DNA from: Limisphaerales bacterium
GTDB taxonomy: Bacteria; Verrucomicrobiota; Verrucomicrobiia; Limisphaerales; CAZKNW01
DNA length: 64,000 nt
Direction of reading: 5' to 3'
Assembly (NCBI GenBank): GCA_965658675.1
Contig: CBFHTT010000031.1
Location: forward strand, 51,320-115,319
Shown here: positions 33,084 to 59,935 of the stretch, piece by piece
Layout: each line of letters starts with the position of its first letter
Position numbering within the stretch: the first letter of the stretch is position 1
Program-made: the position numbers and the translations under genes
The notes under the pieces: generated by a model
Database searches by the model: none
The model's input: only the letters and a program-made list of their open reading frames with translations
What the model was told of the DNA's origin: nothing

Positions 33084-33166
33084 TAGGTCACCCTGTCAAT
33101 CACCGGGGGACTCCAGCCGGAGTCCCCTGCCCTTTCATAGGGAATTCGTGAAACGTCATACAGACC

Positions 33167-43390: not shown

Positions 43391-44437
43391 TTGCCTCGCA
43401 TTATCAGAGTCAACGAATCTCCCGGCTTTCAGCAGTCCACCCATCTGATGCTACCAACCCTCCATCCAAAGCTTGAATCAGTGATCCTTGAGACCACTCA
43501 AGCAACGTCCCTGAATGTAGAGGAAGCCATTCAGGAACTCTGGAGTGGCTACGGAAACATTCTCAGGATCAAACTGACCGGAGCGGCAAATAGTTCAGTA
43601 ATCGCCAAATACGTCACGCCTCCCAACGCTCAATCACATCCTCGGGGATGGAACACGAGTCGCTCTCATGAACGGAAGCTATTCTCATATCAGGTGGAAT
43701 CCTCGTTCTACGAGCAATGGAGCAGCAAGTGTGGAGCTGATTGCCGGGTGGCTACGTTTCTTGCTCATCAGCAATTGGACGGGACAACGCTTCTGGTCAT
43801 GGAAGATCTTGATGCTGCCGGATACGCCGATCGCTTAACCTCGGTTGATTGGGAGCAAATTGACAGCTGCCTCCGTTGGCTCGCCAACTTTCACGCCACC
43901 TTCATGGGCTGCAGTCCCGATGCGCTTTGGAAGACAGGAACTTATTGGCATCTGGATACACGCCCGGATGAATGGAGCACAATGGATCAGGGCGACTTGA
44001 AGGACGCTGCCTCAACGATTGATAGTAAACTCAATCAAGCCCGCTTCCAGACGTTCGTGCATGGTGATGCCAAGCTGGCCAACTTCTGCTTTTCTTCACA
44101 GTCCGATCAAGTGGCAGCTGTGGATTTTCAATACGTGGGTGGAGGATGCGGAATGAAAGACGTCGCCTACTTCATCGGCAGTTGTCTGAATGAAGACGAA
44201 TGTGAAAAGCATGAAACTGCCCTGCTAGATTGCTACTTCAATCACCTCGAAAAGGCATTGATGATCAAGAAGCCAGATATCAATCCGTCAGATCTCATCG
44301 ACGAATGGCAGAGCCTATACCATCTGGCGTGGACGGATTTTCACCGATTCCTCAAAGGCTGGTGTCCCGATCACTGGAAGATCAACAGCTACAGCGAACG
44401 CATCGCCATAAAAGTGATTCAAGATCTGTGTGATTGA
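43391..44437 (+). CDS. Phosphotransferase-family (APH/CHK-like) small-molecule kinase.
   Basis: 348 aa. Catalytic loop [11 protein letters not shown] (H-G-D-x4-N). Downstream [14 protein letters not shown]. Confidence 0.6.
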
Positions 44438-44443
44438 GCGATC

Positions 44444-45730
44444 TTACTTCCCTTTGAAGCAGAAGAGATATTTTGCACTGCGAATCAGGAGATGATTTTT
44501 GTAAGGCACGGGCATTGCGATGACAGACTCACCCATGTCGTTCTCTGAAAGAAGCTCATAGCCATTCTCGATTCCGACCACAAACACCACACCATCTTCG
44601 CGAGCAGCATACAGTTTTCCATCTGCAATCAATGGTGATGAGTAGTAGTTGGATTTATTCTTGGGCAAAGCCGCATTCCAAATGGTCTTACCAGACTTGG
44701 GATCCAGGCACTCAATCTCGCCTCGATCTCTCAAGAGATAAACTTTCCCATCGTGCGCAGCCGGACTTGGCACAAATGAACTGATGTCATTCCGCTTCCA
44801 AACCCGATGAGTCTCGGTCACATCACCACTACCATCTAGACGAATGCCATGAATGCGCGGAATCTTACGGTCATTTCTCCCAAAAGGAACCACCGCCATA
44901 TCACCCACCACAACAGGCGTAGCCACCGCCGGCCACAATGCCTTTTCATCCGGATTGAAATCACCACAAGACCAGATGATGGCGCCATCATTCGGATCGT
45001 GGACCGTCAGATGTTGAGTACCCCACACCAGCAGGGCCTCTTTGCCCTTATGTTGAATGATTTGAGGTGTGGCATAACCGTGATCCCCTTCACGCGGCGT
45101 CTTGTAGTTCCGCGCCACCTTCCATGCCAGTTTTCCTGAATCCTTCTCGAAAGCAGCAAGCCATGATTCACCTTCGTGCATCCTTGCCATGACCACGTGA
45201 TCCTTGGTCAATACAGGCGACGTGCCATGATCCCAATACAACGTGTCCGGCCCATACATCTCCACCAGATTAATCTCCCAACGCACCTTGCCTCCCAAGG
45301 TCAGTGATGCCAACGCACCGCTCTTGTAGTTTACATAGAGTTTCTTTCCGTCGGTGATCGGAGAGGGATTACTTCCAGATCCATTACGATGCCGTCCCGG
45401 GTTCTCTTTACCCAGAGACGTCTGCCACAACCGCTTTCCATCAAGACCATAAGCCTCCACCGAGTCCTTTCCATCAGCAGGCACCGTGAGATAAATGCGA
45501 CCATCAAGAACGATCGGAGTTGAGCACCCTTTCCCCGGCAACGCCACCTTCCACAAAGGCTGCTCCGCATTCAAATTCACCGGGTAGACACCACCTTCCA
45601 CACTTCCATTCCCATGAGGCCCACGCCACTGCATCCAATCAGCGCCGTTGATCGAGGAGGAAGAGATAACCGTCAGGGCAGACAACACCAATAGGCCATG
45701 CAACCGTTTTAGAAATCTGGGAAGAATCAT
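44444..45730 (-). CDS. Secreted PQQ-repeat beta-propeller protein (BamB-like fold).
   Basis: 428 aa. Signal peptide. Repeated W/G-rich beta-propeller blades (WRGPHGNG, LWQTSLG, AWKVARN, IWSCGDF, IWNAALP). Confidence 0.7.
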   Translation of the reverse strand: MILPRFLKRLHGLLVLSALTVISSSSINGADWMQWRGPHGNGSVEGGVYPVNLNAEQPLWKVALPGKGCSTPIVLDGRIYLTVPADGKDSVEAYGLDGKRLWQTSLGKENPGRHRNGSGSNPSPITDGKKLYVNYKSGALASLTLGGKVRWEINLVEMYGPDTLYWDHGTSPVLTKDHVVMARMHEGESWLAAFEKDSGKLAWKVARNYKTPREGDHGYATPQIIQHKGKEALLVWGTQHLTVHDPNDGAIIWSCGDFNPDEKALWPAVATPVVVGDMAVVPFGRNDRKIPRIHGIRLDGSGDVTETHRVWKRNDISSFVPSPAAHDGKVYLLRDRGEIECLDPKSGKTIWNAALPKNKSNYYSSPLIADGKLYAAREDGVVFVVGIENGYELLSENDMGESVIAMPVPYKNHLLIRSAKYLFCFKGK

Positions 45731-45781
45731 GAGGTGAGTCTACCCAAGCCCCTTTACCAAGTCACGTCGTTCATCAGCGAA

Positions 45782-47770
45782 TCAGACCTCCTGATTGGAA
45801 GCAAAGCCGAGGGCGTCTTCGAGCCAGTTATCCATCTTGAGAACGGATTTCCGCTGCTTGTATGCCATGCGCTGCGCGTTGGCTTGGGCTCGATGGTAGA
45901 AACGTGCCAGTATGAGAGATCGTCCGGGAACAGGCGTGGCGCTGGCCATATTCAATGACTTCTGGAGCGTCTTTCTGAGGTGCCGCTTCACCAACTCATC
46001 ATCTGCACTGACAAACGCCTGTGCACTTCCAGGATCCCCCTGTCTACCTGCTCGTCCATAAAGCTGTCTGTCGACCCTGCCTGACTCGTGCTTCTCGGTG
46101 GAGATCACATGAAGCCCACCCAGATCTTTAACCCCTTTGCCCAGCAGGATATCGGTTCCGCGGCCTGCCATATTAGTGGCGATGGTGATACGTCCACGCT
46201 CACCGGCATCAGCAATGATACCTGCTTCTTCCTGATGGTGAACGGCATTCAACAGGCGATGAATGAGCCCTGCTTCATCGAGCAGTTTGGAAAGTTTTTC
46301 AGAGGCGGTGACGCTTCGTGTTCCTACAAGGATGGGACGCCCTTTGGCATAAACCCGTTTGATTTCTCCAACAATTCCCTGCCACTTTGCTTCGTCATCA
46401 GGGAAATACCGATCAGGCCATTGCTCACGAATGCAGGGCTTGTTCGTCGGGATCTTCACAACCGCCAGACCATAGATCTGCCAAAACTCAGGAGAGGCTT
46501 CCGCGGCCGTTCCCGTCATTCCCGAAAGACGTCTGTAGAGTCTGAAAAAGCGTTGAAAACTCAGGCGGGCAATTGTCTCGGCCGGGCTACTGATTGGGAG
46601 TCCTTCCTTGGCCTCGATAGCCTGATGCATTCCCTGTCGCCAACTCCGCTGGGGCATGGGACGTCCAGTGAACTCATCCACGATCACGACCTTGTCATCC
46701 ACGATGACATATTGCTTCCCCTTCACATAAAATTCCCGCGCCACCAATGCCTGTCTGAGCAGCTCAAGCCGACGCTCCTCGCTATGCCAGAATCCAGGAA
46801 GATCAGAACAGATCTCTTCAATTCTCCGTCGCCCTTCTGGAGTCAGTTCCACTTCGCGGTATTTGGAAACGACCTTGTAATGGATCTCTGCCTCAAGCTC
46901 ATTCACCAGACGGCATGCAATCATAACCACATGCTCCAACGACTTGTTTTCCTTGGGCGCTGAAATAATCAAAGGCGTCACCGCTTCATCGATCAAGACA
47001 CTGTCCGCTTCATCAATAATCGCTATGTCCACGCCTCGCATCACCAGCTGTTCCCTCGCTCGAAACTCGGGCTTTCCCATCTGCTTTATCAATCTGCGCA
47101 CGGGGCTATTGACCGTTCCGATGCGGAGCCGATCTCTCAAAAAGTCCGCGAGTATCTCCTTACTGGTGGAGTAAGTGACGTCGCAGTTGTATCCCTTTTG
47201 ACGTTCCGGCACCTGCATGTCTCCGGTCACCCAACCCACCCGGACACCGCAGAATTCATAAAGCATCTTCAGCCACTTGGGATCGCGCTTTACGAGGTAG
47301 TCATTCACGGTGATGACATGTGTTGGCCGGCGGGTCCAGCCAGCCAGCACTGCAGCAATGCCTGCCGTCAGTGTCTTGCCCTCCCCGGTCGCCATCTCTG
47401 CAAGATACCCTTTATAGAGAGCCAGTGCCCCCATGATCTGAACCATGAACGGGCGCAGTCCCAATGTGCGCTGTGCGGCTTCGCGAACGGCAGCAAGTGC
47501 GGGAGCTACGTTCTCTTCAACATCTCTCCCTCCCCTGCGAAAGATCTGTCTGAAGGCAAATATCTTTGAGCGGAGTTCATGATCATTCATGGCCTTCCAC
47601 TCATCTGCCTGTGCCTCCACTTCTTCAGCCTGCTTTTCGATTTCTGAAAAGACACTGTTTCCACGCTTCACACGACCGATCACTGTATTCACCGCTGCGT
47701 CCAAGCCCTTGTATAACTTTCGAGGGCTCTGGCAGGAGGCACGGCGATAGTCCTGTGTCGGCGTGATCAT
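45782..47770 (-). CDS. Truncated SecA-like motor ATPase (DEAD motor NBD1-PPXD-NBD2 only, 662 aa, lacking the SecA C-terminal helical scaffold/wing/CTL).
   Basis: LGLRPFMVQIMGALALYKGYLAEMATGEGKTL (SecA Walker A region). IIDEADSVLIDEA (DEAD box). MTGTAAEASPEFWQIYGLAVVKIPTNKP. ATNMAGRGTDI. ESGRVDRQLYGRAGRQGDPGS (SecA motif VI). Start overlaps the stop of the M50-HlyD gene (ATGA). Confidence 0.8.
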   Translation of the reverse strand: MITPTQDYRRASCQSPRKLYKGLDAAVNTVIGRVKRGNSVFSEIEKQAEEVEAQADEWKAMNDHELRSKIFAFRQIFRRGGRDVEENVAPALAAVREAAQRTLGLRPFMVQIMGALALYKGYLAEMATGEGKTLTAGIAAVLAGWTRRPTHVITVNDYLVKRDPKWLKMLYEFCGVRVGWVTGDMQVPERQKGYNCDVTYSTSKEILADFLRDRLRIGTVNSPVRRLIKQMGKPEFRAREQLVMRGVDIAIIDEADSVLIDEAVTPLIISAPKENKSLEHVVMIACRLVNELEAEIHYKVVSKYREVELTPEGRRRIEEICSDLPGFWHSEERRLELLRQALVAREFYVKGKQYVIVDDKVVIVDEFTGRPMPQRSWRQGMHQAIEAKEGLPISSPAETIARLSFQRFFRLYRRLSGMTGTAAEASPEFWQIYGLAVVKIPTNKPCIREQWPDRYFPDDEAKWQGIVGEIKRVYAKGRPILVGTRSVTASEKLSKLLDEAGLIHRLLNAVHHQEEAGIIADAGERGRITIATNMAGRGTDILLGKGVKDLGGLHVISTEKHESGRVDRQLYGRAGRQGDPGSAQAFVSADDELVKRHLRKTLQKSLNMASATPVPGRSLILARFYHRAQANAQRMAYKQRKSVLKMDNWLEDALGFASNQEV

Positions 47771-49923
47771 ATCTGATAGCGGCTTTGGAGGAGCTGACGG
47801 AAACGACGTATCCAGCGCGGAATCAATGGTTCTGAACCGATGTCGAAACGCACCATTCCAGTCCGGCCGTGATGGAGCATCACCGCGTCACTCTCGGATA
47901 TCTTACCAGTCACACGGAAGAAAGGTTCTGTGGTGGAAGTGCCATTACCATCATCCTGTTTGACAGGGATCGATCCACCTGCGGACCAACCCAATGCAGC
48001 TGAAGGCAGCGAGTATTGCTCTGCCGGCACGATCACCAGGTCCTTGATCTCAAACTCCTGCTTCGATTTACCTCTGAATCTTAATTCCGCGTCAGTGGCC
48101 AACTTCTGATTGAACAGGAAGTCCACATCATCCTGCTGAACCACAGCAACAAACTCATAGGACTCCGGATTGATCAAGAGCCCTACAGGCGTGCCGCGAG
48201 CCAACCAACGTCCCTGATAGCTCTCGATTCCAGGCGCCACCCATTCCCCTGACTGACTGGCCCTGACCACAAGGTTCTCCAAATACTCTTCCAGCTGGGC
48301 GATTCGTTTCTTGGATGCATCGAGACTGCTTTTGAGCGGTTGCACATCCGCCCCTCCTGCCTGGATCGCCATTCGGATTCTTGTCTCAACTTCCTTCAGA
48401 TTGGCGAGTGCAGCCTTGTGCTGCAGTTCCAGTTGTCGGTTCGAAAGTCGGATCAACGGATCGCCCGCTTTCACCGGCTCACCCGGTGTCGCAAGGATCT
48501 CTTCCACCTGCCCCTCTGACTTGAGGGTGAGCTGCGACCATTCGGTAGATTCAATCACGCCAGGAGCACGGAAATGATATGGAAAATGAATGAAATTGAG
48601 GCAGAGGATCAGAACGGCAAAAAAAGCAATGGACACGGAAACGGCCCGCAATCGCACACGATCCAGCTGGGGACTGGTGCTCAGGTATTTGACGAATTTC
48701 CATATCGGAGCAATCACCCATGACACGATACAGATCACCGCCATGATGATTCCCACGAGAAGGAATTGATCCGCAACGAACAGAAGAATGGTCGCAAACA
48801 CAACAATCCTGTAGATGCCCGCGGCAATTCCGAAGACAGTCAAAAGCCCCGCTTCCTTCTTACTCCGCGTAGGGCTCTCAGAATTCTTCACGCCAAACAC
48901 ATAATGCTCAACCAGATGCCTCAGATGCTTGCTCGAACGTTGATGCAGGTTCGGAATATCAAGGACATCGGAAAGGATGTAATAACCATCAAAACGCAGC
49001 AACGGATTGGCGTTAAATAGCAATGTGGAGACCGAGGCGATGAACATCACATTGTAGGCCACGGCATTGACGACTCCTTGCGATGTATTGGCCCAGATCA
49101 CGGCAGCGATGGCTGCCACAAAGATCTCAACAATCATCCCTGCCGCACCGACCAACGCCCTTTTCCAACGCGAACGAAACGACCAACTGGAAGTCGCATC
49201 CATGTATGGGATGGGGGTGAAGATCAGCAACATGACACCCATGATATGGACCTCCCCTCCGTATTTCCTACAGAAGTAGGCATGTCCAAACTCATGGAAG
49301 GTCTTGATGAAGACCATCGCAATATAGAGGTAGAACAGATTGCTGGGTGCCAACACTGAGTTGGACTGATCCATGGCACTGTTCCAATTGTCTGCCACCA
49401 CCTTGAGCCCGAAGCCGACGACCAACAACCAGATCAATCCACCGATTGGAGTGATCATCTTTCCAATGTATGGAAGTGTGTTCTTCAGGAACCGATCCGG
49501 ATCGAAAAGCGGAATACGCATGAACATGATCTGGAGCAGTTTTGCCCGCGCCTCACGTTGTTTGCGTTTCTTGTATCGTTCAAAGAGCTTGGCACTGTCC
49601 GCTGCCAGGTCGTATTGGAGCAGATTGGCAAAATAGAGTTGAGACAACAGCTGGATCACTGACTCCTGCCCCGGCGCTTCTTCAGGAAATTTCTCAACAA
49701 CCTCATCCCATACATCCTGAACGGTCCGATCTGGGCGCAGACGCGATACAAACTCATACGCTGCAGGTCGAAGCCGGTAGAACTGATTACTGAAAGGATT
49801 CTCCAGAACAATCCAGCGCTCTCCCCTAAAGTTCTGCCGCCGCGTCTTCACCCCAAGGCGCAGACTGATTTTCTGGTTCGCGATGCGATACCAGCTCTCA
49901 CTGAATGTTTGATTGCCTGCCAC
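47767..49923 (-). CDS. Site-2-protease (peptidase M50)-like membrane domain fused to a C-terminal HlyD-type membrane-fusion domain.
   Basis: 718 aa. About 170 aa cytoplasmic N-terminus. Polytopic region with HEFGHAY (HExxH) and NPLLRFDGYY (S2P LDG motif). Then a TM and a biotin-lipoyl/beta-barrel HlyD-like region (VKAGDPLIRLSNRQLELQ...). Confidence 0.75.
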   Translation of the reverse strand: MAGNQTFSESWYRIANQKISLRLGVKTRRQNFRGERWIVLENPFSNQFYRLRPAAYEFVSRLRPDRTVQDVWDEVVEKFPEEAPGQESVIQLLSQLYFANLLQYDLAADSAKLFERYKKRKQREARAKLLQIMFMRIPLFDPDRFLKNTLPYIGKMITPIGGLIWLLVVGFGLKVVADNWNSAMDQSNSVLAPSNLFYLYIAMVFIKTFHEFGHAYFCRKYGGEVHIMGVMLLIFTPIPYMDATSSWSFRSRWKRALVGAAGMIVEIFVAAIAAVIWANTSQGVVNAVAYNVMFIASVSTLLFNANPLLRFDGYYILSDVLDIPNLHQRSSKHLRHLVEHYVFGVKNSESPTRSKKEAGLLTVFGIAAGIYRIVVFATILLFVADQFLLVGIIMAVICIVSWVIAPIWKFVKYLSTSPQLDRVRLRAVSVSIAFFAVLILCLNFIHFPYHFRAPGVIESTEWSQLTLKSEGQVEEILATPGEPVKAGDPLIRLSNRQLELQHKAALANLKEVETRIRMAIQAGGADVQPLKSSLDASKKRIAQLEEYLENLVVRASQSGEWVAPGIESYQGRWLARGTPVGLLINPESYEFVAVVQQDDVDFLFNQKLATDAELRFRGKSKQEFEIKDLVIVPAEQYSLPSAALGWSAGGSIPVKQDDGNGTSTTEPFFRVTGKISESDAVMLHHGRTGMVRFDIGSEPLIPRWIRRFRQLLQSRYQI

Positions 49924-49952
49924 GATGGAAAACGTTGCTGAGATTCAATGCT

Positions 49953-51821
49953 CTACCACCAGAGCCACATGCGAAGGAAGTCGACTGTCTTGTGAGTAAA
50001 GATCCAGGCCAGTGTTCGTTTCTCCACATTGATCTTGGATAATCCAGCCATTCCCGGCCGCCACCAATCTTGGATCTCATCCTCAAATTCCAGGCGAACC
50101 ATGAAGCGATTTCCATCTGTGCGAGGAACAGCAGCCGGCTCAATCCGTGTGACCTTCATCGGGAACTTCAGATTCGGCCGACTGAACAACGCGATCTCTG
50201 CCGACTCAGAATCCATGATCTCGTGAATATCAGCTTCATCCACCTCCGCCTCCACATACAGACGGTCCAATCTGGCAACACGATAAAGGGCATCACCCTG
50301 ACTTACGGGGGCTCCAATACGTTCCTCCAGATCGCCCTCTACCACAAAGCCTTCAAAAGCCACCTTCACCTCAGCCAGTTCCAGCCGATGACGGATCAAC
50401 TCCCATCTTGCCTCTGACTGTTCTCCCAGAGCCTGAGCGATCTGCATCTCAGCCAGCTTGCCAGCCGCACGAGATTTCTCAGCCTCCTTTCGATAACGAT
50501 TGAGATCAGCGATGGCCGAAGCCTCCTCCAGTAACAGATCTTCGGTATTGAGGCGAAGCAGTGGTTGATCCTTCTTCACCAGATCACCCGTCTTCACCAA
50601 CACCTCGTCGATATAACCATTGTAAGGAGCCGTCAGGAAAGACACCTCTTCACTACGAATGATAAAATCAGCCTCCACCCGATAAGGAACACGCACGAAG
50701 AACAAGATAGCCAACAACGTGGCAATCAACACGGTGAGGACCTTGGCCCATGTATGCTCTGGTCCAAGGATCTTGGATGCCTTTTCCTTACACGACGCGG
50801 CCATTCGGGCGCCAAACCATCGGTCATTCTTTTTCAGATCGGCCAGTCGCGGAATGACCTGATCACCGATCAGGCGCAGTTGCTGAAGCTCGACCTCGGT
50901 AAATGCACCGCTCTGCCGCTCACAGGTCAGGACAGCAACGGGTTCTTCTTCCGAGCGAAGTGGAGTGGAACAAATAAAATCAACAGCCTGACTGCGGGCG
51001 AACTTCTCGTGATCCCGATTGACGAACGTTGCCTCTTGAGGCGACGGAAACACAATCTCTTCATCCTGATCATGGGCCTCCTCCATTGCTGCCTCCAGAT
51101 CTGTGACTGAAGACATGTTCTTCTCAAACTTCTCAGTCCGACTGATGGACTGCATCTTGATGTATCCGCCCTGCAACCATCCAAGGCTGACTCGATCACA
51201 CTGAAACTTGGTGGCAACGGAATTACAGAGAGCCAACGTCGATGAAAGAAAGCGCTTCTCTTCATTCACCTCAGCCAGCACATCCATGGCTACAGCCATG
51301 CGCTCTGCTTCCAGTCTGGCTTTCTCGACGCGACCTGCAGCCTGAAACGAAACAGGTAGATCCGCTATCAATTCAAGACGGGCCAACATCTCCTGCGCCC
51401 GGTCCAGAGTGATATGGGTCAGCAAAAAGGCACCGACACAAACATCCTGTTCCTGATCGAGCTTCAACCGGATTCCGACAGCAAAATTTCTGAGCCCTTC
51501 CGGATCTGAAGAGCCAACTGATTGAAGGTGCTTTTCTTTATCAGCGCATACTCCTGCCAAGCCTCCCAAAACCTGGGAAAACTCCAGAACGACAGGGCTA
51601 TTGTCCGCCTTCTGTGGCCACTCGCCTATCTTCTTGAGTGGTTCATCGCCTGCCTTCTTCAGGATCAACACACCTCGCTTGGCATTCACCAATCGGGATG
51701 CGGCATCCAAGAAGCGTCGCCAAAAGTCCGACGGCGATCCACTGAAAGAACGAAGTTCCTGAAGATCCTGCTGAGCCTCTTCAGAGGGTTGTGGGGAATG
51801 CCCCGTCTTTTCTTCAGCCAT
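49953..51821 (-). CDS. HlyD-family membrane-fusion protein with N-terminal cytoplasmic GAF-like domain.
   Basis: 622 aa. About 330 aa soluble N-terminus with GAF-like alpha/beta pattern. Single TM WAKVLTVLIATLLAILFFV. Periplasmic HlyD-like coiled-coil plus lipoyl/beta-barrel region (VKKDQPLLRLNTEDL). Confidence 0.65.
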   Translation of the reverse strand: MAEEKTGHSPQPSEEAQQDLQELRSFSGSPSDFWRRFLDAASRLVNAKRGVLILKKAGDEPLKKIGEWPQKADNSPVVLEFSQVLGGLAGVCADKEKHLQSVGSSDPEGLRNFAVGIRLKLDQEQDVCVGAFLLTHITLDRAQEMLARLELIADLPVSFQAAGRVEKARLEAERMAVAMDVLAEVNEEKRFLSSTLALCNSVATKFQCDRVSLGWLQGGYIKMQSISRTEKFEKNMSSVTDLEAAMEEAHDQDEEIVFPSPQEATFVNRDHEKFARSQAVDFICSTPLRSEEEPVAVLTCERQSGAFTEVELQQLRLIGDQVIPRLADLKKNDRWFGARMAASCKEKASKILGPEHTWAKVLTVLIATLLAILFFVRVPYRVEADFIIRSEEVSFLTAPYNGYIDEVLVKTGDLVKKDQPLLRLNTEDLLLEEASAIADLNRYRKEAEKSRAAGKLAEMQIAQALGEQSEARWELIRHRLELAEVKVAFEGFVVEGDLEERIGAPVSQGDALYRVARLDRLYVEAEVDEADIHEIMDSESAEIALFSRPNLKFPMKVTRIEPAAVPRTDGNRFMVRLEFEDEIQDWWRPGMAGLSKINVEKRTLAWIFTHKTVDFLRMWLWW

Positions 51822-51824
51822 GGT

Positions 51825-52664
51825 TTATGGGGTTTGGATATGAATCAATCCGGCGACACCGGGTTTGATCTGACCGTCCTGATTATCAAAGACAGCCTTG
51901 ATGCGCAGCAATCCACTGTAGGGATCCACCACAGGAGAAATGAAATCAATGGCACCAGTCAGTTTGACCTTGGCATCCCCGTTCTGAATCTCCAGATCTA
52001 CCTTTTGTCCCTTCTTCAGATACTGACCTGCGCTGCCTGCGACGTTTGAGACAAAGTAACAACGGGTGACGTCCACGACTCTGGCCAATGGTTCCTGCGA
52101 TTTGGCGTCCTCACCTTCCTGATAGAGCATCTGGGCAATCATTCCCTTGATGGGAGACACCAGGACACGCCGATCATGATCTTCCTTTGCAATGCTGTAT
52201 TCGATCTCCTCGCGCTTCTCCACCGTCTGCAGGCGTTGATGCTCAGCCTTCGCCTTCACGTATTCCAGTTCCTTGACGGCGACATCGTCCTTACTCACCG
52301 AACCTGTTTTCTCGGCCAGTTTCTTGGTGGTCTCGTAGTCGTCCTTCTTTATCTGTTCATCCGTGGCGGCGGCAGTCACCTCAGCCTTGCTCTCCCAAAG
52401 CAATTTGCGCCGCGCCATTTCCAGTTTCTCAGCCTCGCGCTCAAACTCAAAGATCACCTGCCCCTTCTCCACCGGATCACCTTCATTCACTGGTCGGGCT
52501 TCAATCGTCCCGGCCACCTTGGCACTCACCGTCACGTCGTGAATAGCCTCGGTGATACCTTCAAAAGAGAGGGTGGCTGCCTGAATCGGCAACAACGCGA
52601 AAAGAATCAACGCGGAGGCGCAGATCCCTTTCATTCCGGATGAACTCGGATGATTGGATTTCAT
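51825..52664 (-). CDS. Periplasmic efflux adaptor (HlyD/MFP family, signal-peptide form).
   Basis: 279 aa. Signal peptide. Lipoyl-like VEKGQVIFEFE. Coiled-coil hairpin. C-terminal beta-barrel. Confidence 0.75.
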   Translation of the reverse strand: MKSNHPSSSGMKGICASALILFALLPIQAATLSFEGITEAIHDVTVSAKVAGTIEARPVNEGDPVEKGQVIFEFEREAEKLEMARRKLLWESKAEVTAAATDEQIKKDDYETTKKLAEKTGSVSKDDVAVKELEYVKAKAEHQRLQTVEKREEIEYSIAKEDHDRRVLVSPIKGMIAQMLYQEGEDAKSQEPLARVVDVTRCYFVSNVAGSAGQYLKKGQKVDLEIQNGDAKVKLTGAIDFISPVVDPYSGLLRIKAVFDNQDGQIKPGVAGLIHIQTP

Positions 52665-52675
52665 TGGTGATAGGA

Positions 52676-54559
52676 TTATTGAGCGTCCTGCTCGAGTTCG
52701 GTGACCTTGGATTTCAATTCATGCACAGCCTGATTCACTGCTTCTTGACTGGTGATCTCAGGGGCTGGACCGGATGATTTCTTGGCAGTGACCTTCTTAG
52801 CAGGCGTGGCTTTTGGGGCACTTGTTTTCTTCACTGGCGTCGTGAATTCACCACGTGCCCGATAACGCGTAAAGATGGATGCTCTGGCTCCATCAAGGGA
52901 TGCATCAGAGATCTCAGAGCGGCGCATCATGATGTCACGGGTATTGGTCGCCAGGTCACCCTGACTAAGCTCGATGTTGCGATCTTCGAGGTAACTCCCC
53001 TTGAGACTTTCCATTTCAAGAATCGCACGCTCCAACCGCACTTGGCCTTCGATGTAGGCAATACGCGCCTCGAACAGGTCCTCTTCCTTTTCCAATACGG
53101 ACCGGCTGTCAGACTTCCCTGCTTCCATCCGTGCGATCTCGGTGTCCAACACGCGCTGGTTGAACGACACAATGGATTCATAGCGACCCACGTTGTCCGC
53201 AAAGATGCGCACGCGGTCAATGGCGGCATCCAGCGCATTGATCAACTGAGTCTCAGTAGTCTTAAGATTCAGCAAGGCCTGGCGTTGGCGAAGTTTGGCG
53301 GCATCGCGCTCAAGGCGTCCTTTCTTGTTTCCATCCAGAGGCACGCGAAACTCGAATCCAAAACTCCACGAGGCATAATTGTTCTCTGCCAAATCCTCGA
53401 ATGAACCTGCTGGTGTTCCATCCAGACCATTGAGACCGTAACTACCACGAAGGTCTAATTGAGGAAGTGCCTGATTCCGCTGATAGGCCAGGCGCACCTT
53501 CTCCTGTTCGGCCTGTTTGGCTCGTATCTTCAGGTCTGGGTTCTTCTCAAATGCAACACTCCAGTGATCTCCTACCTCTCCCTTGATTTCACGGCCAGTG
53601 GGCGTATCCGTGGTCTCAATGACATACTTCCCATTGGCTACTGATTCGGAGAAAAGCGTCATGGCGCGACTGGTCGCATCCTGAAGCACCTGCTTGGCTT
53701 CGTTCAACAAGGCGAGACGACGTGCTACACCTGCTTCAGCTTCCAGAACATCGAGTTCACTGGCCTTACCCACTTTGACCCGCTCCTGATTATCCTCCAA
53801 CACCGTCTTGGCCAACCCTACGGAATCAGTGGCGATCTTGTGCTGTTGCTGCGCCAGATAGAGATCCCAATAAGTGGCTTCGGCTGTGGCGGCGAGTTCG
53901 ATGAGTCCTTTGCGGTATTCCTGAAAGGCCACGTCCGATGCAGCGGCAGCCAGTCGCATGTTCACCATGGTGGCATTCTTGCCAAAGTTCTTCAGCACAG
54001 GCTGAATAACACTGAGTCCGACATTGGATTGAAACTCACCGTTGTGGGTTGCTGGTCCGTTATTGATGTCGTTCTGCAGCCGGCTCATGGAGAACCCGAG
54101 GCGGAACTGCGTTCCACCCTCCTTCATCGTCCATTCCAGCCCCTGCTTCATGATGCGATTTCGCTCATTGAAATCCGCGCGCCCACCACCAAAGAGCCCG
54201 AGGGATGAAGTCTGCTGTGCGTTGTTCGGACGTTGGGAATCCTGACTCTCAAAGTCAGTTACAGACACGGGGGAAAAATTGTGCTTCTGAGCACGGTAGG
54301 TTCTTTGGCCAATCTCTGTTTCAAGAAGCCTTACCTCAAGCGCCTCGTTATGTTGGAGTACCCGCCTGACAAAGTCCTCTTGAGACATTTTCAAGGGCTG
54401 GGTTTCTTGGGCCTCAACGCCGATACCGCCAATGAGATAAACCCCAGTAAATACCACCCCGAGCCATCCCGCAGACTTAGGTCCACGGCCGTTTGCTTGA
54501 TTTGTCATAATCATTTTAGAAAGAGCGCGTACGGCACCATTTAGCCCTCTCGTTGTCAA
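52676..54559 (-). CDS. TolC-family outer-membrane efflux protein with a Lys-rich C-terminal extension.
   Basis: 627 aa. Two TolC-type helical repeats (TYWDLYLAQQQ..., LDLRGSYGLNG..., VLDTEIARMEAGKSD). C-terminal KKTSAPKATPAKKVTAKKSSGPAP tail. Confidence 0.8.
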   Translation of the reverse strand: MTTRGLNGAVRALSKMIMTNQANGRGPKSAGWLGVVFTGVYLIGGIGVEAQETQPLKMSQEDFVRRVLQHNEALEVRLLETEIGQRTYRAQKHNFSPVSVTDFESQDSQRPNNAQQTSSLGLFGGGRADFNERNRIMKQGLEWTMKEGGTQFRLGFSMSRLQNDINNGPATHNGEFQSNVGLSVIQPVLKNFGKNATMVNMRLAAAASDVAFQEYRKGLIELAATAEATYWDLYLAQQQHKIATDSVGLAKTVLEDNQERVKVGKASELDVLEAEAGVARRLALLNEAKQVLQDATSRAMTLFSESVANGKYVIETTDTPTGREIKGEVGDHWSVAFEKNPDLKIRAKQAEQEKVRLAYQRNQALPQLDLRGSYGLNGLDGTPAGSFEDLAENNYASWSFGFEFRVPLDGNKKGRLERDAAKLRQRQALLNLKTTETQLINALDAAIDRVRIFADNVGRYESIVSFNQRVLDTEIARMEAGKSDSRSVLEKEEDLFEARIAYIEGQVRLERAILEMESLKGSYLEDRNIELSQGDLATNTRDIMMRRSEISDASLDGARASIFTRYRARGEFTTPVKKTSAPKATPAKKVTAKKSSGPAPEITSQEAVNQAVHELKSKVTELEQDAQ

Positions 54560-54667
54560 TGGCTAAGTGGCATTGTTCGCTTCTCAAAAGGACAAAAAAC
54601 GATTCCCTCGTAACCTGCTTACAAAGTCTTTACTTCCGGCCGTCGTTTCCAAGACACGCAACAGAGT

Positions 54668-55909
54668 CTAGCAACAGCTATCACCTTCGCAGCAATTGCT
54701 GGGATCGGTGGTCAATCGGTAGTTCAGTCCCTTCATCTCTCTTGGGTCACGCCACTTCATCCCTGTCCATGAAAACGGCTCTTTTTTCTCCACCGGCTTC
54801 AAGGGTTCCAGCAACTCAAACTGATCTGCATAAGCCGATGATTTGAATGCCGCCATGGTCTTGTCACACACGGCAGCGCGAACACCTCGCTCATAATGAT
54901 GTCCGGCATCATCCAAGACTTTCTTGAACGGTCCTTTATAGACCACCGCCTGCCCCGCATCTGAACCGGGACTCACGTCCAGCCGATACGCCTCCAGCGT
55001 CAATGACCGAAACTCGATCCCTTCCACGGTCTGCCATGGTTGTTCATCCCGTTTGAGAATGCGAATCCCAACAAAGCCTGCAGCCTCAAATGCGGCGACA
55101 AACTCTTCTTCTCGAAGCGCACCCGAGATGCAACCACTCCAAAGAGTAGGATCATTCTTCATGGCATCCGTCGGCTCTTCATCACTCACGATATCAGAGA
55201 TCACTGCACGACCTCCCTCTTTCAGAACACGATGAATCTCAGCAAAGAGCTGGGGTTTGAGCGATGCGTCCACCAGATTTAGAACACAGTTGGAAACCAC
55301 GACATCCACACTCTCAGAAGGAACCAAGGGTTCTTTGGTGCGGAGCTCAGCAGCGATCTCTTCCGCCCGAATGAATCCATCTACTCCATCCACAGGATTT
55401 GACTGCAGGGCTTCATCAAATTTCTCCAGATTCAACGCAAGATCCTGAATGCGGCCTTTGCGGAACTCGACATTGTCGTATCCCATGCGCTCAGCAACGA
55501 TCGGACGATTCCTCTGTGCTACCTCTAGCATATCATCCGTCATATCCACGCCGATGACCTTGCCCTTCTCTCCTACCACCTGCGCGGCAATGAAACAGAT
55601 CTTTCCAGTGCCACTACCGAGATCGAGAACAGTCTCCCCTTCCTTCAAGTAGCGACTTGGGTCCCCGCATCCGTAATCCCGCTCAATGACTTCCTGAGGA
55701 ATGATCTCGAGAAACTTGCGATCATAGTCAACAGGGCAACACAAAGCCGCCTCCTGGGCGTTTGCGGCGGCGGCGTAGCGTTCTTTTACAGCAGATTCGG
55801 TCTTAAGAGTGCTCATGTCGTGTTTCGTGTCGCGGCGATTCAAAGCCCAAGGGAGCATGGTTGCAATCACCACATCAAAAAAAATGGCGCACCAGCTTAT
55901 CGCCGGCAC
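54668..55909 (-). CDS. SAM-dependent methyltransferase, arsenite methyltransferase (ArsM)-like. Likely start MSTLKTE near 55816.
   Basis: ALCCPVDYD and GCGDP N-terminal Cys motifs as in ArsM. SAM motif VLDLGSGTGKICFIAAQ. Cys-rich C-terminal tail NCCEGDSCC. Confidence 0.6.
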   Translation of the reverse strand: MPAISWCAIFFDVVIATMLPWALNRRDTKHDMSTLKTESAVKERYAAAANAQEAALCCPVDYDRKFLEIIPQEVIERDYGCGDPSRYLKEGETVLDLGSGTGKICFIAAQVVGEKGKVIGVDMTDDMLEVAQRNRPIVAERMGYDNVEFRKGRIQDLALNLEKFDEALQSNPVDGVDGFIRAEEIAAELRTKEPLVPSESVDVVVSNCVLNLVDASLKPQLFAEIHRVLKEGGRAVISDIVSDEEPTDAMKNDPTLWSGCISGALREEEFVAAFEAAGFVGIRILKRDEQPWQTVEGIEFRSLTLEAYRLDVSPGSDAGQAVVYKGPFKKVLDDAGHHYERGVRAAVCDKTMAAFKSSAYADQFELLEPLKPVEKKEPFSWTGMKWRDPREMKGLNYRLTTDPSNCCEGDSCC

Positions 55910-55941
55910 GCCATTGGAGATTCGAACGAAAGGATTATTCC

Positions 55942-57564
55942 CTAACGCAACTCATGTCCTTCATGACTACATTTTGGAAAATCCTTCACCGCACCAATCG
56001 TATACGTCCCGTTGTTAGGACACGTTGCCCTGATCTTGATATAGAGCGCTGTTCCTATCAAATCCGACTGTTTAGGCGTATCCAATGGACCCTTTTTATT
56101 ATCCAAAGCCCACTGTTGCTTGGCTCCGTCCAACTGCTTGAGGTTGGCAATACAGGTATTCTTTTGGGCACTCGACCTGGCTTTGACGAAATTTGGAATG
56201 GCTATGGCAGCCATCAGTCCAGCCGGGGCAATCATTCCTCCAGCCAAGAAAGAGAACGCTGGTTGAAAGTTCGCATTACCCGTCATTTTCCATCCGTTCT
56301 TCTCATGCGCGATGACCACGTAACCAAACTTGGCTTCGCTAAAATTCGTCAGCATCGCCCTGACGGCAGTGATCTGATCATCCTCTCCGCCCGCCATTTC
56401 CATGGCCTTCGTCTGGATTTCGTTGACCGTTTCTCCAAAGCGCTTGCTGGAATAGAAGAAACCATTTCCTTCGGTCGGCATCTCACGAGAGAGTGATTTG
56501 AACTCATCGGTCGAGGTCAGTCCTTCTGCTTCGCCCTTATGAACTGCCACCGCTTCCATGACTAGTTCCTTGGTTGATCCAAGAATCAATTGGTTCTCAA
56601 AACGGGCAAGTGTCGGAGTCAATTGAACCGGCAGCGGAATCGGAAGCGGCATACTGACATAGCGCACGCCATTGGTTTCACCACGATCCACGCTGGGATC
56701 CTTTGGGATAATAGACCCAACATGATCAAACAAAAGATCATCAGCCACTTCCAACATGATCAACAACCCCGGTGCAGGAATCGTAAGTGGTTCATCACCA
56801 GGAAAAGGAAGAGGCACCTGCTGACTATCATCAAGGGTCATTGCAAATCCCATATCCCCACCATAGGTATTCAGGAAGGCATCCCACTCCAATCCGGTGC
56901 CTGCTTGAAACGCCTGTTTCAGTTCCTTGATCCCCTCAAGTCCCTGAGGTGCATCCAAAGCAAGGACGAGTTCTTCAAACACAGTCACCAGCTCCTTGAT
57001 GTTCACTTCGCCGTAATCAGCGATCACTGTATTCGAAGGCAGGTAGGAAAGTCCGTTCAATGGCTTGGCTTCCTTACCAAAGGTCGTCCAAAGGAATCCA
57101 TCACCCTGCCCTTCGCGATGGTGAAGAATGGCCTTGGAGTGGTAGATCCCCTTCTCAATTGCCACTGAACTCACACCCAGTCCCGTGGCATCCTTCATTC
57201 CGCTACGATCTACAAATGCCCTGGCAACCTTGAATCCATTTTCAATCAGCTTGGCCTCATCCCCATTTCCTTTGGGAAAACCAGCCATCAATGTTTCGGC
57301 TCCATCGATCAGCTCATCCACTTTGCCAAGCAACTGCTCCGTGCTGACATACATATAGAAATTTCCTCCTGGATTCAGTTCGGAGGTCACTTTATCAAAA
57401 GTCGTCTTCTCTGCGGGAACAATGCCTGGCTTGGCTTCCACCACCGCAGGTTGCTCCACAATGGGAGGCGGTGCCTGCTGCTTGTTTCCACATCCACTCA
57501 ACACCAGACACGACGCCGCTGTAGCGCCTGCCAACATCACCTTGGGTATACTGATTTTCTTCAT
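55942..57564 (-). CDS. Lipoprotein with C-terminal pseudopilin-like hydrophobic/N-methylation-domain-like segment.
   Basis: 540 aa. Lipobox LSGC. Large soluble domain. C-terminal MAAIAIPNFVKARSSAQKNTCIANLKQLDGAKQQWAL resembles the N-terminus of type-IV pilin-like DUF1559 proteins. Confidence 0.5.
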   Translation of the reverse strand: MKKISIPKVMLAGATAASCLVLSGCGNKQQAPPPIVEQPAVVEAKPGIVPAEKTTFDKVTSELNPGGNFYMYVSTEQLLGKVDELIDGAETLMAGFPKGNGDEAKLIENGFKVARAFVDRSGMKDATGLGVSSVAIEKGIYHSKAILHHREGQGDGFLWTTFGKEAKPLNGLSYLPSNTVIADYGEVNIKELVTVFEELVLALDAPQGLEGIKELKQAFQAGTGLEWDAFLNTYGGDMGFAMTLDDSQQVPLPFPGDEPLTIPAPGLLIMLEVADDLLFDHVGSIIPKDPSVDRGETNGVRYVSMPLPIPLPVQLTPTLARFENQLILGSTKELVMEAVAVHKGEAEGLTSTDEFKSLSREMPTEGNGFFYSSKRFGETVNEIQTKAMEMAGGEDDQITAVRAMLTNFSEAKFGYVVIAHEKNGWKMTGNANFQPAFSFLAGGMIAPAGLMAAIAIPNFVKARSSAQKNTCIANLKQLDGAKQQWALDNKKGPLDTPKQSDLIGTALYIKIRATCPNNGTYTIGAVKDFPKCSHEGHELR

Positions 57565-58486: not shown

Positions 58487-59935
58487 GTGCCCGACGCAGG
58501 CATGTCTTCATCTCCATCCATCAACGATCTGATTTCGCTCAGCCAACAGCTTGAGCGCGATCGTGATCTTCCTTTAAGGGAGCTGGAGGAGCGCGATCAC
58601 TCGCTCAGTCTGGACACGTCGAAAGAAGTCCGCGATCAAGAGCTCCTTCAAAATTGGTTACGGGCGCTTCCATCCCTTTCCTCTACAAATTTCGGCAAAG
58701 CCCGCTCGATTGGTCTCCTTTTGCTTGGCGGGTTGTCACTAATTGCTGGGCTGGGCTCAGGCATGGCGATGTTTCGCTATGACGGGACACACCCCATCAA
58801 CATTCTCCCACCTGTCGCAACCATCCTGATCTTTCAGGTAGTCAGCCTTGTTGTAGCATTCATTTTGATGAAGAGCTCAGCCGCTCCTGATAATGGTGGG
58901 ATTGGCCATACCTTGCGCGAACTAAGCCCGGGACGCTGGCTACCGGCCATCCTCAGACTCTGTAGCCAACCGACAAGAGAGGCGTTCGATACCCTTCACT
59001 CCTCCGTGTCCAGGCATCGAGCGCTCTTCACACCAGTTTATTCATGGAGTGCGTTTCACGCGTCACAATGGGCGTCTTCACTCTTCTTCGCCGGGCTGAC
59101 TCTCAGTTTTCTCAGACTGGTCCTTTTCACAGATCTGGCCTTTGCATGGAGCACGACCTTGGACCTTCAGCCATCAACACTCCATTCGTGGACAAGTCTC
59201 CTGACAGCCCCTGTCTCATTACTCATCCCATCAGTCAGCCCTTCATTGGATCTGGTGAGCGGCACGCGATATTTCCGATTGGAAGACGGCGGATTTTCTG
59301 CAGTCGCGAGTATGGACGTCCCCGGATCTTGGTGGCCGTTTGTTCTTGGTATTCTCTGTCTCTATGGAGTGCTTCCTCGGCTACTCTGTCTAGCTGTTGG
59401 CGCATGGAAGACGAACGCGCAGGTGAAAGCCTGTTTCACACAATTCCCCGGCGCATCCGATGTCATCAGGAGGCTCCGATCTCCAATCATTGAAACGATC
59501 ACCAAAGACGATCAGGAAGATGCCCCTGATTCCGTATCGCAAGATTCAGAAACAGATCATGGCATTACCAAGACTCCAACTCAGATCCTAATCTGGAACG
59601 AAGCGCAGAATCCTTTCATTGAAGCCAGGCAGACTCAGATTGGAGGACGACAATCATGGGAACAGGATATCCAGTCTTTGAAGACATTTTCAGCTGAGAT
59701 CGGAAACGCTGAAGCATGGATCTCTGTAAAGGCATGGGAGCCACCGACCGCAGACCTCGTGGATCTGCTGAAGGAATTACGCCCCCTACTCCAAGCCTCA
59801 CAAGCAATCAGGGTTGTCACTCAGTTTGAATCTGCGCCAAGCGAAGATCAGTTCTCAGTCTGGCAAAAGCGTCTCGCCAAACTCGGAGATCCTTACCTTC
59901 AGGTGGTGAAGCCGAACAGTGGAGGCGGCGAATGA
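58487..59935 (+). CDS. Polytopic membrane protein (DUF2868-like), translationally coupled to the downstream GTPase.
   Basis: 482 aa. At least 5 TM helices. No catalytic motifs. TGA/ATG overlap with the next gene at 59932-59935. Confidence 0.45.
   Translation: MPDAGMSSSPSINDLISLSQQLERDRDLPLRELEERDHSLSLDTSKEVRDQELLQNWLRALPSLSSTNFGKARSIGLLLLGGLSLIAGLGSGMAMFRYDGTHPINILPPVATILIFQVVSLVVAFILMKSSAAPDNGGIGHTLRELSPGRWLPAILRLCSQPTREAFDTLHSSVSRHRALFTPVYSWSAFHASQWASSLFFAGLTLSFLRLVLFTDLAFAWSTTLDLQPSTLHSWTSLLTAPVSLLIPSVSPSLDLVSGTRYFRLEDGGFSAVASMDVPGSWWPFVLGILCLYGVLPRLLCLAVGAWKTNAQVKACFTQFPGASDVIRRLRSPIIETITKDDQEDAPDSVSQDSETDHGITKTPTQILIWNEAQNPFIEARQTQIGGRQSWEQDIQSLKTFSAEIGNAEAWISVKAWEPPTADLVDLLKELRPLLQASQAIRVVTQFESAPSEDQFSVWQKRLAKLGDPYLQVVKPNSGGGE

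Follow-up and report, generated by a model that had tools for sequence, protein, structure and literature searches.

We examined a stretch of 64,000 nucleotides from a Limisphaerales bacterium (assembly GCA_965658675.1, contig CBFHTT010000031.1, positions 51,320 to 115,319 of the forward strand), referred to here as the window and numbered from its first letter. The original prediction, made from the letters alone, was that five genes of this stretch form an envelope-spanning exporter driven by a SecA-family motor. A check of the open reading frames (ORFs) of the window found all five, spanning 45782-54559 on the minus strand. They are co-directional and tightly packed, as had been described. 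Gaps of 11, 3 and 29 bp separate the first four genes, and the stop of the fourth gene overlaps the start of the fifth by 4 bp (ATGA), again as predicted. In order of transcription, the genes encode an outer-membrane factor, a short periplasmic adaptor, an adaptor with GAF domains (GAF-HlyD), an adaptor fused to an M50 protease (M50-HlyD) and a SecA-like ATPase. Pfam searches returned the domains that had been expected of these proteins, namely OEP, HlyD, GAF with HlyD, M50 with HlyD, and SecA_DEAD with SecA_PP_bind in the absence of SecA_SW. Domain scans of the five proteins also bore out the claim that the operon holds no ATP-binding cassette (ABC), resistance-nodulation-division (RND) or major facilitator superfamily (MFS) pump.

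The first gene (52676..54559, minus strand) encodes an outer-membrane factor of the TolC/OEP family. Pfam OEP matches it with E=8e-37 and two repeats, while the NCBIfam TolC and NodT models match far under their cut-offs. The protein has an N-terminal signal peptide, and simple hydropathy analysis, which was used for all membrane segments given here, places its hydrophobic segment at residues 30-48. The ATG at 54514, giving 612 aa, is more likely to be the start than the TTG at 54559, which gives 627 aa; the gene call at a related locus (L085) is also 612 aa. The second gene (51825..52664, minus strand) encodes a short periplasmic adaptor, or membrane fusion protein (MFP), of 279 aa (269 aa according to the gene caller). 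It matches Pfam HlyD_D23 (E=1e-21), HlyD_3 and Biotin_lipoyl_2, and it scores 115 bits against NCBIfam RND_mfp, above the cut-off of 94.9. It has a signal peptide only, with a hydrophobic segment at residues 14-32, and lacks a cytoplasmic domain. GAF-HlyD, the 622-aa product of the third gene (49953..51821, minus strand), is an inner-membrane adaptor that matches Pfam GAF and HlyD. Tandem GAF domains at residues ~12-152 and 191-333 are predicted to be cytoplasmic, and a single transmembrane (TM) helix at ~357-379 follows the 360-residue cytoplasmic part. The periplasmic MFP part consists of lipoyl, alpha-hairpin and beta-barrel domains, and a conserved C-terminal helix ends in WW. The MFP folds of the operon's adaptors match the structures of MacA, MexA, AcrA and EmrA.

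The fourth gene (47767..49923, minus strand) encodes M50-HlyD, a fusion protein of 718 aa with Pfam matches to Peptidase_M50 and HlyD and a weak match to PqqD. A winged-helix domain resembling PqqD and the recognition element (RRE) of peptides that are made on ribosomes and modified after translation (RiPPs) lies at residues ~20-105. It is followed by a membrane domain of the site-2-protease type (~140-445), an MFP part (446-699) and a C-terminal helix. Several TM helices were found between residues ~150 and 445. The two hallmarks of site-2 proteases (Peptidase M50), HExxH in a TM helix and NxxPxxxxDG, are both present. The zinc-binding and catalytic motif HEFGH (residues 210-214; 49282..49296, minus strand) is invariant in 54 homologues. 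NANPLLRFDG (residues 304-313; 48985..49014, minus strand) supplies the third zinc ligand and is typical of site-2 proteases. Residues H210, E211, H214, N304, P307, D312 and G313 are invariant in the alignment of the 54 homologues, and all 54 match PF02163 at E<=0.01. The motifs had been given as HEFGH plus LDG. The former is correct, and the latter reads NPLLRFDG, hence FDG. Likewise, the M50 and HlyD parts of the proposed architecture hold, and the N-terminal RRE/PqqD-like domain had been overlooked.

This N-terminal domain (49609..49866, minus strand) was assigned from Pfam and NCBIfam matches together with its predicted topology. It is strongly conserved, with invariant arginines at R22, R29, R33, R36, R50 and R61. 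PqqD (PF05402) matches 27 of the 54 family members, with a best E of 2e-6. In an AlphaFold2 model of M50-HlyD (m2399f1c61d59, pLDDT 78), residues 26-98 form three strands followed by three helices, an order that fits the RRE topology. A helical membrane domain and then the adaptor part follow in the model. Foldseek matched the adaptor part to MacA, MexA and AcrA at E ~1e-12; with the full model it returned adaptor proteins only, leaving the RRE and M50 folds without a structural match. The RRE assignment is best described as supported but not proven. The predicted topology puts the RRE, the GAF domains and the SecA-like protein in the cytoplasm and every adaptor part in the periplasm.

The closest described relative of the protease half was found among the daptide peptidases. 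Residues 27-404 of M50-HlyD match NF041824 (daptide_HExxH) with E=2e-53 over positions 9-363 of the 379 in the model, although the 181.7 bits lie under the curated cut-off of 300. The match to the YydH/LiaK epipeptide protease model, NF058609, is weaker (E=8e-8) and also under the cut-off. Since both scores fall short, M50-HlyD is, by sequence, a homologue of the daptide peptidase family and not a member of it, and it does not belong to the epipeptide family either.

The fifth gene (45782..47770, minus strand) encodes the 662-aa SecA-like ATPase, which matches Pfam SecA_DEAD (E=1e-94), SecA_PP_bind and P-loop_SecA and has no SecA_SW. It aligns to residues 16-604 of Bacillus subtilis SecA and comprises nucleotide-binding domain 1 (NBD1), the preprotein cross-linking domain (PPXD), NBD2 and a short stub of the scaffold helix (~50 residues, its first turns). 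It lacks the remainder of the scaffold, the wing domain, the two-helix finger and the C-terminal domain, so that the C-terminal third of SecA is absent. The original prediction of a wingless, truncated SecA paralog was thus right as to the 662 aa and the missing wing. It understated the content, which it had limited to the DEAD motor and the PPXD; both NBDs and part of the scaffold helix are also there. The Walker A motif MATGEGKT (residues 126-133; 47372..47395, minus strand) is invariant in 33 homologues, and DEADSVLIDEA (253-263) and GRAGRQGDPG (572-581) are intact. The family alignment shows no variation in Walker A (GEGKT), the DEAD box or the GRxxRQGDPG arginine finger. The same alignment shows three conserved features specific to the family: a 40-aa N-terminal extension, an insertion of ~20 aa in NBD1 (residues ~217-238) and a C-tail.

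The SecA-like protein scored under the cut-off of every NCBIfam SecA and SecA2 model. The housekeeping SecA models gave 621.9 against 800 (TIGR00963) and 621.1 against 814 (NF009538). The SecA2 models gave 564.6 against 1085 (TIGR04397), 497.8 against 930 (TIGR03714), 462 against 725 (TIGR04221) and 418.5 against 1100 (NF012136). The 120 best homologues are 59-65% identical, and nearly all are ~660-663 aa long. A pseudogene, or a fragment of a decayed secA, is excluded by this uniform length of ~662 aa, the intact motifs and the conserved N-terminus, insertion and C-tail. Judged from these alignments, the protein belongs to a real family and is not a fragment.

Conservation of the operon was assessed by scanning one genome per species with the M50-HlyD alignment. 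The 80 best loci, together with loci collected earlier, gave 82 non-redundant loci. At least 450 species-level genomes encode a relative of M50-HlyD. Among 1.84 billion cluster representatives searched (50% identity), 5,396 match the M50-HlyD profile at E<=1e-30; the top 150 of these are mostly ~715-740 aa long, and some are shorter and probably partial. Relatives are common in soil and freshwater Verrucomicrobiota and are present in several other phyla. The labels of the metagenome-assembled genomes (MAGs) that hold the loci include Verrucomicrobiota, Methylomirabilota, Binatia, Desulfobacterales, Syntrophus, Thermodesulfovibrionia, Omnitrophota and Victivallales. The order OEP, HlyD, GAF-HlyD, M50-HlyD, SecA-like is almost universal in the 82 loci, with the OEP gene first at nearly all of them. 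Three distant homologues of the SecA-like protein are also found with the same five genes in the same order, between unrelated flanks. Because the same order recurs in nearly all 82 loci, the five-gene grouping is far beyond chance.

The SecA-like gene directly follows M50-HlyD in 77 of the 80 evaluable loci. The three others (L041, L055, L068) presumably carry their SecA-like gene elsewhere in the genome, a situation also noted for SecA_DEAD genes in an earlier survey (PMC4452313). No replacement ATPase was seen at L041 and L068, where the genes downstream of M50-HlyD lie on the other strand. An ORF resembling an ABC ATPase occurs within 10 kb in five of the 82 loci and is adjacent to the operon in none; in the window, the nearest ABC genes are an ABC-2 pair ~30 kb away. 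In the loci examined, the SecA-like gene was never seen next to secY. Three outcomes had been named as fatal to the idea of an integrated machine: a separate ABC or RND pump as a constant neighbor, a SecA-like gene that is not conserved along with M50-HlyD, and a SecA-like pseudogene. The refutation fails because none of the three was found. Four of the records (L017, L023, L053, L060) are titled 'uncultured Bifidobacterium sp.' or 'Klebsiella pneumoniae' and are almost certainly mislabeled or contaminated bins.

A gene module of this kind has been described before. Kamneva, Poudel and Ward (PLoS One 2015, PMC4452313) found computationally a module of secondary SecA_DEAD proteins in Verrucomicrobia, Planctomycetes, Proteobacteria and Nitrospirae. 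The carriers listed there include Methylobacterium extorquens AM1 (META1p2399-2402), Ruegeria pomeroyi (SPO2714-2718) and Verrucomicrobium spinosum. Its conserved locus encodes M50-HlyD, GAF-HlyD, small HlyD/biotin-lipoyl and sometimes OEP proteins. The authors pointed out that no ABC transporter was present. They proposed that SecA_DEAD serves as the ATPase, suggested that the M50 protein is the membrane component, and left the substrate and the biological role open. Their phylogeny placed the wingless SecA clade next to actinobacterial SecA2 (PMC4452313). The window operon has both defining features, a protein with SecA_DEAD and SecA_PP_bind but no SecA_SW and a locus with M50-HlyD, GAF-HlyD, small HlyD and OEP genes. 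It is a further member of the 2015 module, and nothing essential differs. The composition had been thought to be new, which does not hold, as it was published with the same idea of SecA as the ATPase; literature searches did bear out that the module has no experimental follow-up, and it is far from any experimentally characterized secretion system. The RRE domain, the tandem GAF domains and the link to giant LEPR-XLL proteins described below are absent from the 2015 account. What goes beyond that paper is the homology to daptide peptidases, the LEPR-XLL linkage and the likeness of the leaders. The extra neighbors reported in 2015, a SapC family and one hypothetical family, do not recur in the 82 loci.

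The flanks of the 82 loci were next clustered by ORF. One neighbor family dominated, consisting of very large ORFs, often >2,500 aa, that run off the locus and follow the SecA-like gene immediately and on the same strand. Their N-termini consist of a basic stretch followed by FELEALEPRVLLSAD. All six giant ORFs tested scored above the cut-off of NCBIfam NF012209 (LEPR-XLL domain; LEPR-8K). With a hidden Markov model (HMM) of the motif, 21 LEPR-motif ORFs were found in 20 of the 82 operon loci. All 21 adjoin the operon or are at most ~1.5 kb away, and they either follow it directly on the same strand or lie ahead of the OEP gene in divergent orientation. As a positional control, the motif was found in 16 of 124 operon-adjacent genes compared to two of 303 other flank genes (Fisher p=1e-7). 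The LEPR-bearing loci carry MAG labels from several verrucomicrobial orders, Desulfobacterales, Syntrophus, Victivallales and Methylacidimicrobium. It had been suggested that small leader-bearing substrates might be found in the flanks. No conserved short ORF was found in the 82 loci; the giant LEPR-XLL neighbors were found instead.

The giant LEPR ORFs have no Pfam domain in a Pfam search. They contain 0.1% Cys and few Lys, Arg or Glu residues and are rich in Gly, Thr, Ser, Ala, Asp and Asn, a composition of the kind typical for proteins that are secreted in an unfolded state. Past LEPR, the sequence (VLLSADALLAAA) is moderately hydrophobic and resembles a signal. The conserved signal of the LEPR proteins is N-terminal, and complete LEPR ORFs in the related loci share no common C-terminal feature or signal. 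Literature searches returned no reported function for the LEPR-XLL motif.

For a test in the reverse direction, metagenomes were scanned with the motif FEL[EQ][ASG]LEPR, using six sequences as the query, and 80 loci were returned. Operon genes lie beside 16 of these 80 LEPR genes, a fraction that is biased upwards because the query came from operon-linked genes. In 14 of the 16 cases the SecA-like gene immediately precedes the LEPR gene, one LEPR gene lies divergent to a complete operon, and one has a distant variant upstream. The variant (L127:77-6087) comprises GAF-HlyD, an M50-HlyD that is 32% identical, an HlyD adaptor with a C-terminal SH3 domain and the LEPR-motif gene; no SecA-like gene is visible on its 6-kb contig. 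Beside the unlinked LEPR genes, no other secretion genes recur, and the sole recurrent neighbor is a response regulator (eight loci).

Two further features of the LEPR ORFs were observed. About 60 residues past the LEPR motif, giant ORFs share a second motif, Y...DIFEG(V/M)xGEA, which may mark the start of the mature protein; examples are L015:13208-21114, L061:14290-22151, L071:14561-22148 and L004:12100-21983. Small LEPR-motif ORFs of ~265-270 aa also occur directly after the SecA-like gene (L007:14312-15106, L009:15185-16000), and at L007 the small ORF lies between the SecA-like gene and a giant LEPR gene. LEPR-motif genes could therefore be tandem and need not be giant, or the small ORFs could instead be frameshifted fragments.

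The N-terminal motif of the giant proteins resembles the leader of the daptide precursors. These have in common the leader motif ELExMEAP with an aliphatic-rich stretch after it, and their leader is stated to be removed by the RRE-dependent peptidase MpaP. The sequence ELEALEPR followed by VLLSA is very close to this. Since M50-HlyD matches the daptide peptidase and ELEALEPR resembles ELExMEAP, a homologous recognition and cleavage module adjoins proteins with a similar leader. By analogy, cleavage would fall just after LEPR. The alternation of hydrophobic residues and Glu in the motif would suit the addition of a strand to the arginine-lined sheet of the RRE. EpeP, a related M50 protease, is believed to combine cleavage of its peptide with its export (PMC10885120). 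The remaining context of daptide biosynthesis is absent from the window and from the flanks of the 82 loci, which contain no aminotransferase/decarboxylase/methyltransferase cluster and no short precursor genes. The proposal that a site-2 protease clips a leader thus gains support from the RRE domain, the full-length homology to the daptide peptidase and the adjacency of LEPR-XLL genes.

From the gene content, domain architecture, motif integrity, conservation and LEPR-XLL linkage observed here, we favor, with a probability of about 0.55, the reading that the operon encodes a dedicated one-step exporter of giant LEPR-XLL proteins that is type-I-like, crosses both membranes, depends on a leader and is driven by the SecA-like ATPase. 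The cargo would be synthesized in the cytoplasm, and its short N-terminal leader would consist of basic residues, FELEALEPR and an Ala/Leu-rich stretch. The arginine-rich RRE of M50-HlyD would bind this acidic, strand-forming leader. The SecA-like motor, translationally coupled to M50-HlyD and probably docked on the RRE and GAF domains, would clamp the unfolded chain with its PPXD and use ATP to feed it, N to C, into the inner-membrane assembly. Passage through the inner membrane would be provided by the M50 membrane domains and the TM helix of GAF-HlyD. The three adaptor paralogues would form a periplasmic duct to the TolC-like channel. The M50 active site would remove the leader, by daptide analogy just after LEPR, and the tandem GAF domains may gate or regulate the machine. 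We infer the binding, cleavage, transport direction and stoichiometry in this scheme, as well as its independence of SecYEG.

A bolder form of this proposal is that the operon represents a distinct, unnamed secretion class. In it, a wingless SecA and the RRE-site-2-protease/adaptor protein replace the ABC transporter, and the LEPR-XLL leader is bound by the RRE and cut by M50. The giants are threaded N to C without SecYEG, and the leader peptidase shares its ancestry with the daptide type. We put this forward tentatively, with somewhat less than even confidence. The type-I-like, SecA-driven exporter of the original prediction accordingly stands in that each test proposed against it and run here came out in favor of an integrated machine; it does not stand as new, and its function is a matter of interpretation.

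Several observations weigh against the proposed exporter of LEPR-XLL proteins. About three quarters of the operon loci lack an adjacent LEPR gene. Conversely, of the LEPR genes that have 2.5 kb or more of sequence upstream, at least 30 show no link to the operon, and the linked fraction in the reverse scan carries the upward bias given above. The 64-kb window itself contains no LEPR-XLL ORF (regular expression and HMM in six frames; best E=0.8). LEPR-XLL may not always be a secretion leader, as a Vibrio LEPR-XLL protein has been reported to carry C-terminal RTX/serralysin domains. Strains of the Vibrio albus clade have an 8000-aa LEPR-XLL/RTX protein. The operon encodes no recognized protein-conducting channel, and the M50 domains and single TM helices would have to form the conduit. 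Two of the domain assignments are weak in the window protein: its M50 domain scores 25.2 bits compared to a gathering threshold of 27.2 for PF02163, and its RRE scores 18.5 bits (E=0.0026) compared to a cut-off of 23.4 for PqqD. A sequence-profile search of the Protein Data Bank with the RRE domain gave no match. In Methylobacterium extorquens AM1, expression during exponential phase was found for the GAF gene alone (PMC4452313). Finally, full-text literature searches found neither experimental nor computational follow-up of the 2015 module.

The strongest of four competing explanations, to which the lack of an obvious protein-conducting channel in the operon lends some weight, is a two-step route through SecYEG. 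Here, the SecA-like protein would be an accessory SecA that brings proteins with a particular, marginally hydrophobic N-terminal signal (LEPR-XLL) to SecYEG, the M50 domain would act as a signal-peptide peptidase, and the adaptors and TolC-like protein would complete export from the periplasm. Each step has a parallel: SecA2-only systems use SecYEG, the site-2 protease family member RseP degrades signal peptides, and MacAB-TolC takes the enterotoxin STII from the periplasm. The SecA-like protein is moreover a true SecA homologue with a PPXD, and the stretch after LEPR is moderately hydrophobic and resembles a signal. However, the whole SecA-like family lacks the wing, most of the scaffold and the two-helix finger, the element that inserts into SecY, and the window protein stays under the cut-off of all NCBIfam SecA2 models. 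The gene is translationally coupled to M50-HlyD and never lies beside secY in the loci examined, and the route requires periplasmic intermediates of several thousand residues. We consider it unlikely, although it carries more weight than any other alternative. Next in weight, and rather less probable, is a role of LEPR-XLL in retention. The giants would exit by another route, for example a type I secretion system with a C-terminal signal, and the operon would hold, process or release the N-terminus at the envelope, much as LapG and LapD act on the N-terminus of LapA. The C-terminal RTX/serralysin domains of the Vibrio protein agree with this, and the GAF domains would suggest regulated release. 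Yet no ABC exporter is linked to the operon or to the unlinked LEPR genes, and the complete LEPR ORFs lack a common C-terminal signal. An ATP-driven polypeptide motor with a PPXD is also hard to account for if the operon only anchors its client.

Another possible explanation is that the operon exports a small peptide of the RiPP or bacteriocin type, which is encoded elsewhere and matured by the RRE-M50 protein, and that the LEPR-XLL giants are neighbors for some other reason. The closest characterized RRE-M50 relatives do process short peptides (daptides, and epipeptides via YydH/EpeP), and IMG names the family 'putative peptide zinc metalloprotease'. But neither a conserved short ORF nor a modification enzyme accompanies the operon in the 82 loci, where the giant LEPR-XLL genes are the sole recurrent neighbors, and a SecA motor that clamps polypeptides would be unnecessary for a short peptide. 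We rate a peptide exporter as slightly more doubtful than the retention role. Least probable is a function outside protein export, whether as a tripartite small-molecule efflux pump or as a signaling system based on regulated intramembrane proteolysis with a GAF sensor. Annotations of the parts as 'multidrug resistance efflux pump' or 'efflux RND transporter periplasmic adaptor' point this way, as do the classical role of site-2 proteases in signaling and the binding of small ligands by GAF domains. The operon, though, has no RND, MFS or ABC pump, no anti-sigma/sigma pair is conserved nearby, and the SecA PPXD and the RRE are both modules that bind polypeptides.

Compared to characterized systems, the proposed exporter of LEPR-XLL proteins resembles classical type I secretion (HlyB-HlyD-TolC, LapB-LapC-LapE), in which an MFP and a TolC-family channel also form a one-step duct. 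The cargo of those systems is often giant, acidic, Cys-poor, adhesin-like and secreted unfolded, like the LEPR candidates. Of the type I components, the MFP (here three HlyD-type proteins) and the OEP are present and the ABC energizer is not. The operon thus differs in having a SecA-family motor instead of an ABC transporter and three adaptor paralogues instead of one. Its metalloprotease is fused to an adaptor, and its candidate signal (LEPR-XLL) is N-terminal, in contrast to the C-terminal signal of type I substrates. The bacteriocin exporters with a C39 peptidase on an ABC transporter resemble it in that the leader, of the double-glycine type, is recognized and cleaved by a protease borne by the exporter. 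They use a cysteine peptidase and carry a short peptide as cargo, whereas the operon has an RRE-bearing intramembrane zinc protease on an adaptor and a separate SecA-like ATPase.

The daptide peptidase MpaP/DapP and the epipeptide protease YydH/EpeP are homologous to M50-HlyD over the whole RRE-plus-M50 region. M50-HlyD differs from them in its fusion to a periplasmic adaptor, in its diderm hosts and in the lack of modification enzymes nearby, and its candidate substrates are thousands of residues long. The SecA2 systems of Gram-positive bacteria and mycobacteria share with the operon a second SecA paralogue devoted to special substrates. Unlike the SecA-like protein, SecA2 proteins keep the scaffold and the two-helix finger, work with SecY or SecY2 and have no MFP or TolC partners. 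Finally, giant proteins of Omnitrophota and Actinobacteria embed SecA_DEAD and PPXD domains without the scaffold-wing region, and according to a proposal these domains export the very protein that carries them (West-Roberts et al., bioRxiv 10.1101/2023.11.21.568195). In that case the motor forms part of the giant, whereas here it is a separate 662-aa protein of the operon.

If the operon does export LEPR-XLL proteins as proposed, it would represent a widespread secretion route that is driven neither by Sec-SecYEG nor by an ABC transporter. It would explain how proteins of several thousand residues reach the surface without an obvious classical signal peptide, and it would give a function to the LEPR-XLL sorting motif of NCBIfam. 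It would also connect protein secretion with the way in which RiPP leaders are recognized, by an RRE and a site-2 protease. Through the RRE homology and the LEPR-XLL linkage the module gains a concrete, testable substrate hypothesis, which makes the 2015 prediction directly testable.

The flanks of the operon in the window are unrelated to it and not conserved. They encode an ArsM-like methyltransferase, a lipoprotein, a BamB-like propeller, a kinase-like protein, a spermidine-synthase-like protein and an MFS transporter. The BamB-like beta-propeller downstream (44444-45730), the ArsM-like methyltransferase and the 540-aa lipoprotein were considered as parts of the system and rejected, as they are not conserved beside the operon. 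The ArsM-like gene (54668-55909, minus strand) lies directly upstream and encodes an arsenite/arsinothricin-type methyltransferase (NF040538, E=2e-99, under the cut-off). A promoter and terminator scan of 44000-56200 gave counts at or under the expectation from shuffled sequence. The sole strong terminator-like hairpin in this region (55883-55915, minus strand; 14 pairs, eight of them G-C, followed by a T-run) lies just past the 540-aa lipoprotein gene and over the annotated GTG start of the ArsM-like gene.

A 1791-aa ORF at 33167-38542 was considered as cargo and rejected, since it encodes a cytoplasmic AAA/DUF3686 protein instead. It is the second of two plus-strand genes at 30918-38542; a 721-aa ORF without a family match precedes this DUF3686/AAA/DUF7902 protein, and PADLOC found only a marginal IetA-like match. 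The pair may be an uncharacterized ATPase system. An overlapping pair at 58487-61308 (plus strand) encodes a DUF2868 protein and a DUF3482 GTPase (MMR_HSR1). Among the neighboring proteins without assigned function, PADLOC found only the DUF3482 GTPase to resemble LeoA/LeoBC dynamin-like proteins (E ~1e-8 to 1e-9). The window also contains two ammonium-transporter genes, one within 22930-27428 and one at 61800-63230, both on the minus strand. The first encodes a transporter of 630 aa that carries ~230 extra residues at its C-terminus, and the stop of this gene overlaps the start of one for a hybrid histidine kinase/response regulator with a Tll0287-like sensor domain. The extra C-terminal region and the overlap with the kinase gene suggest Amt-coupled signaling.

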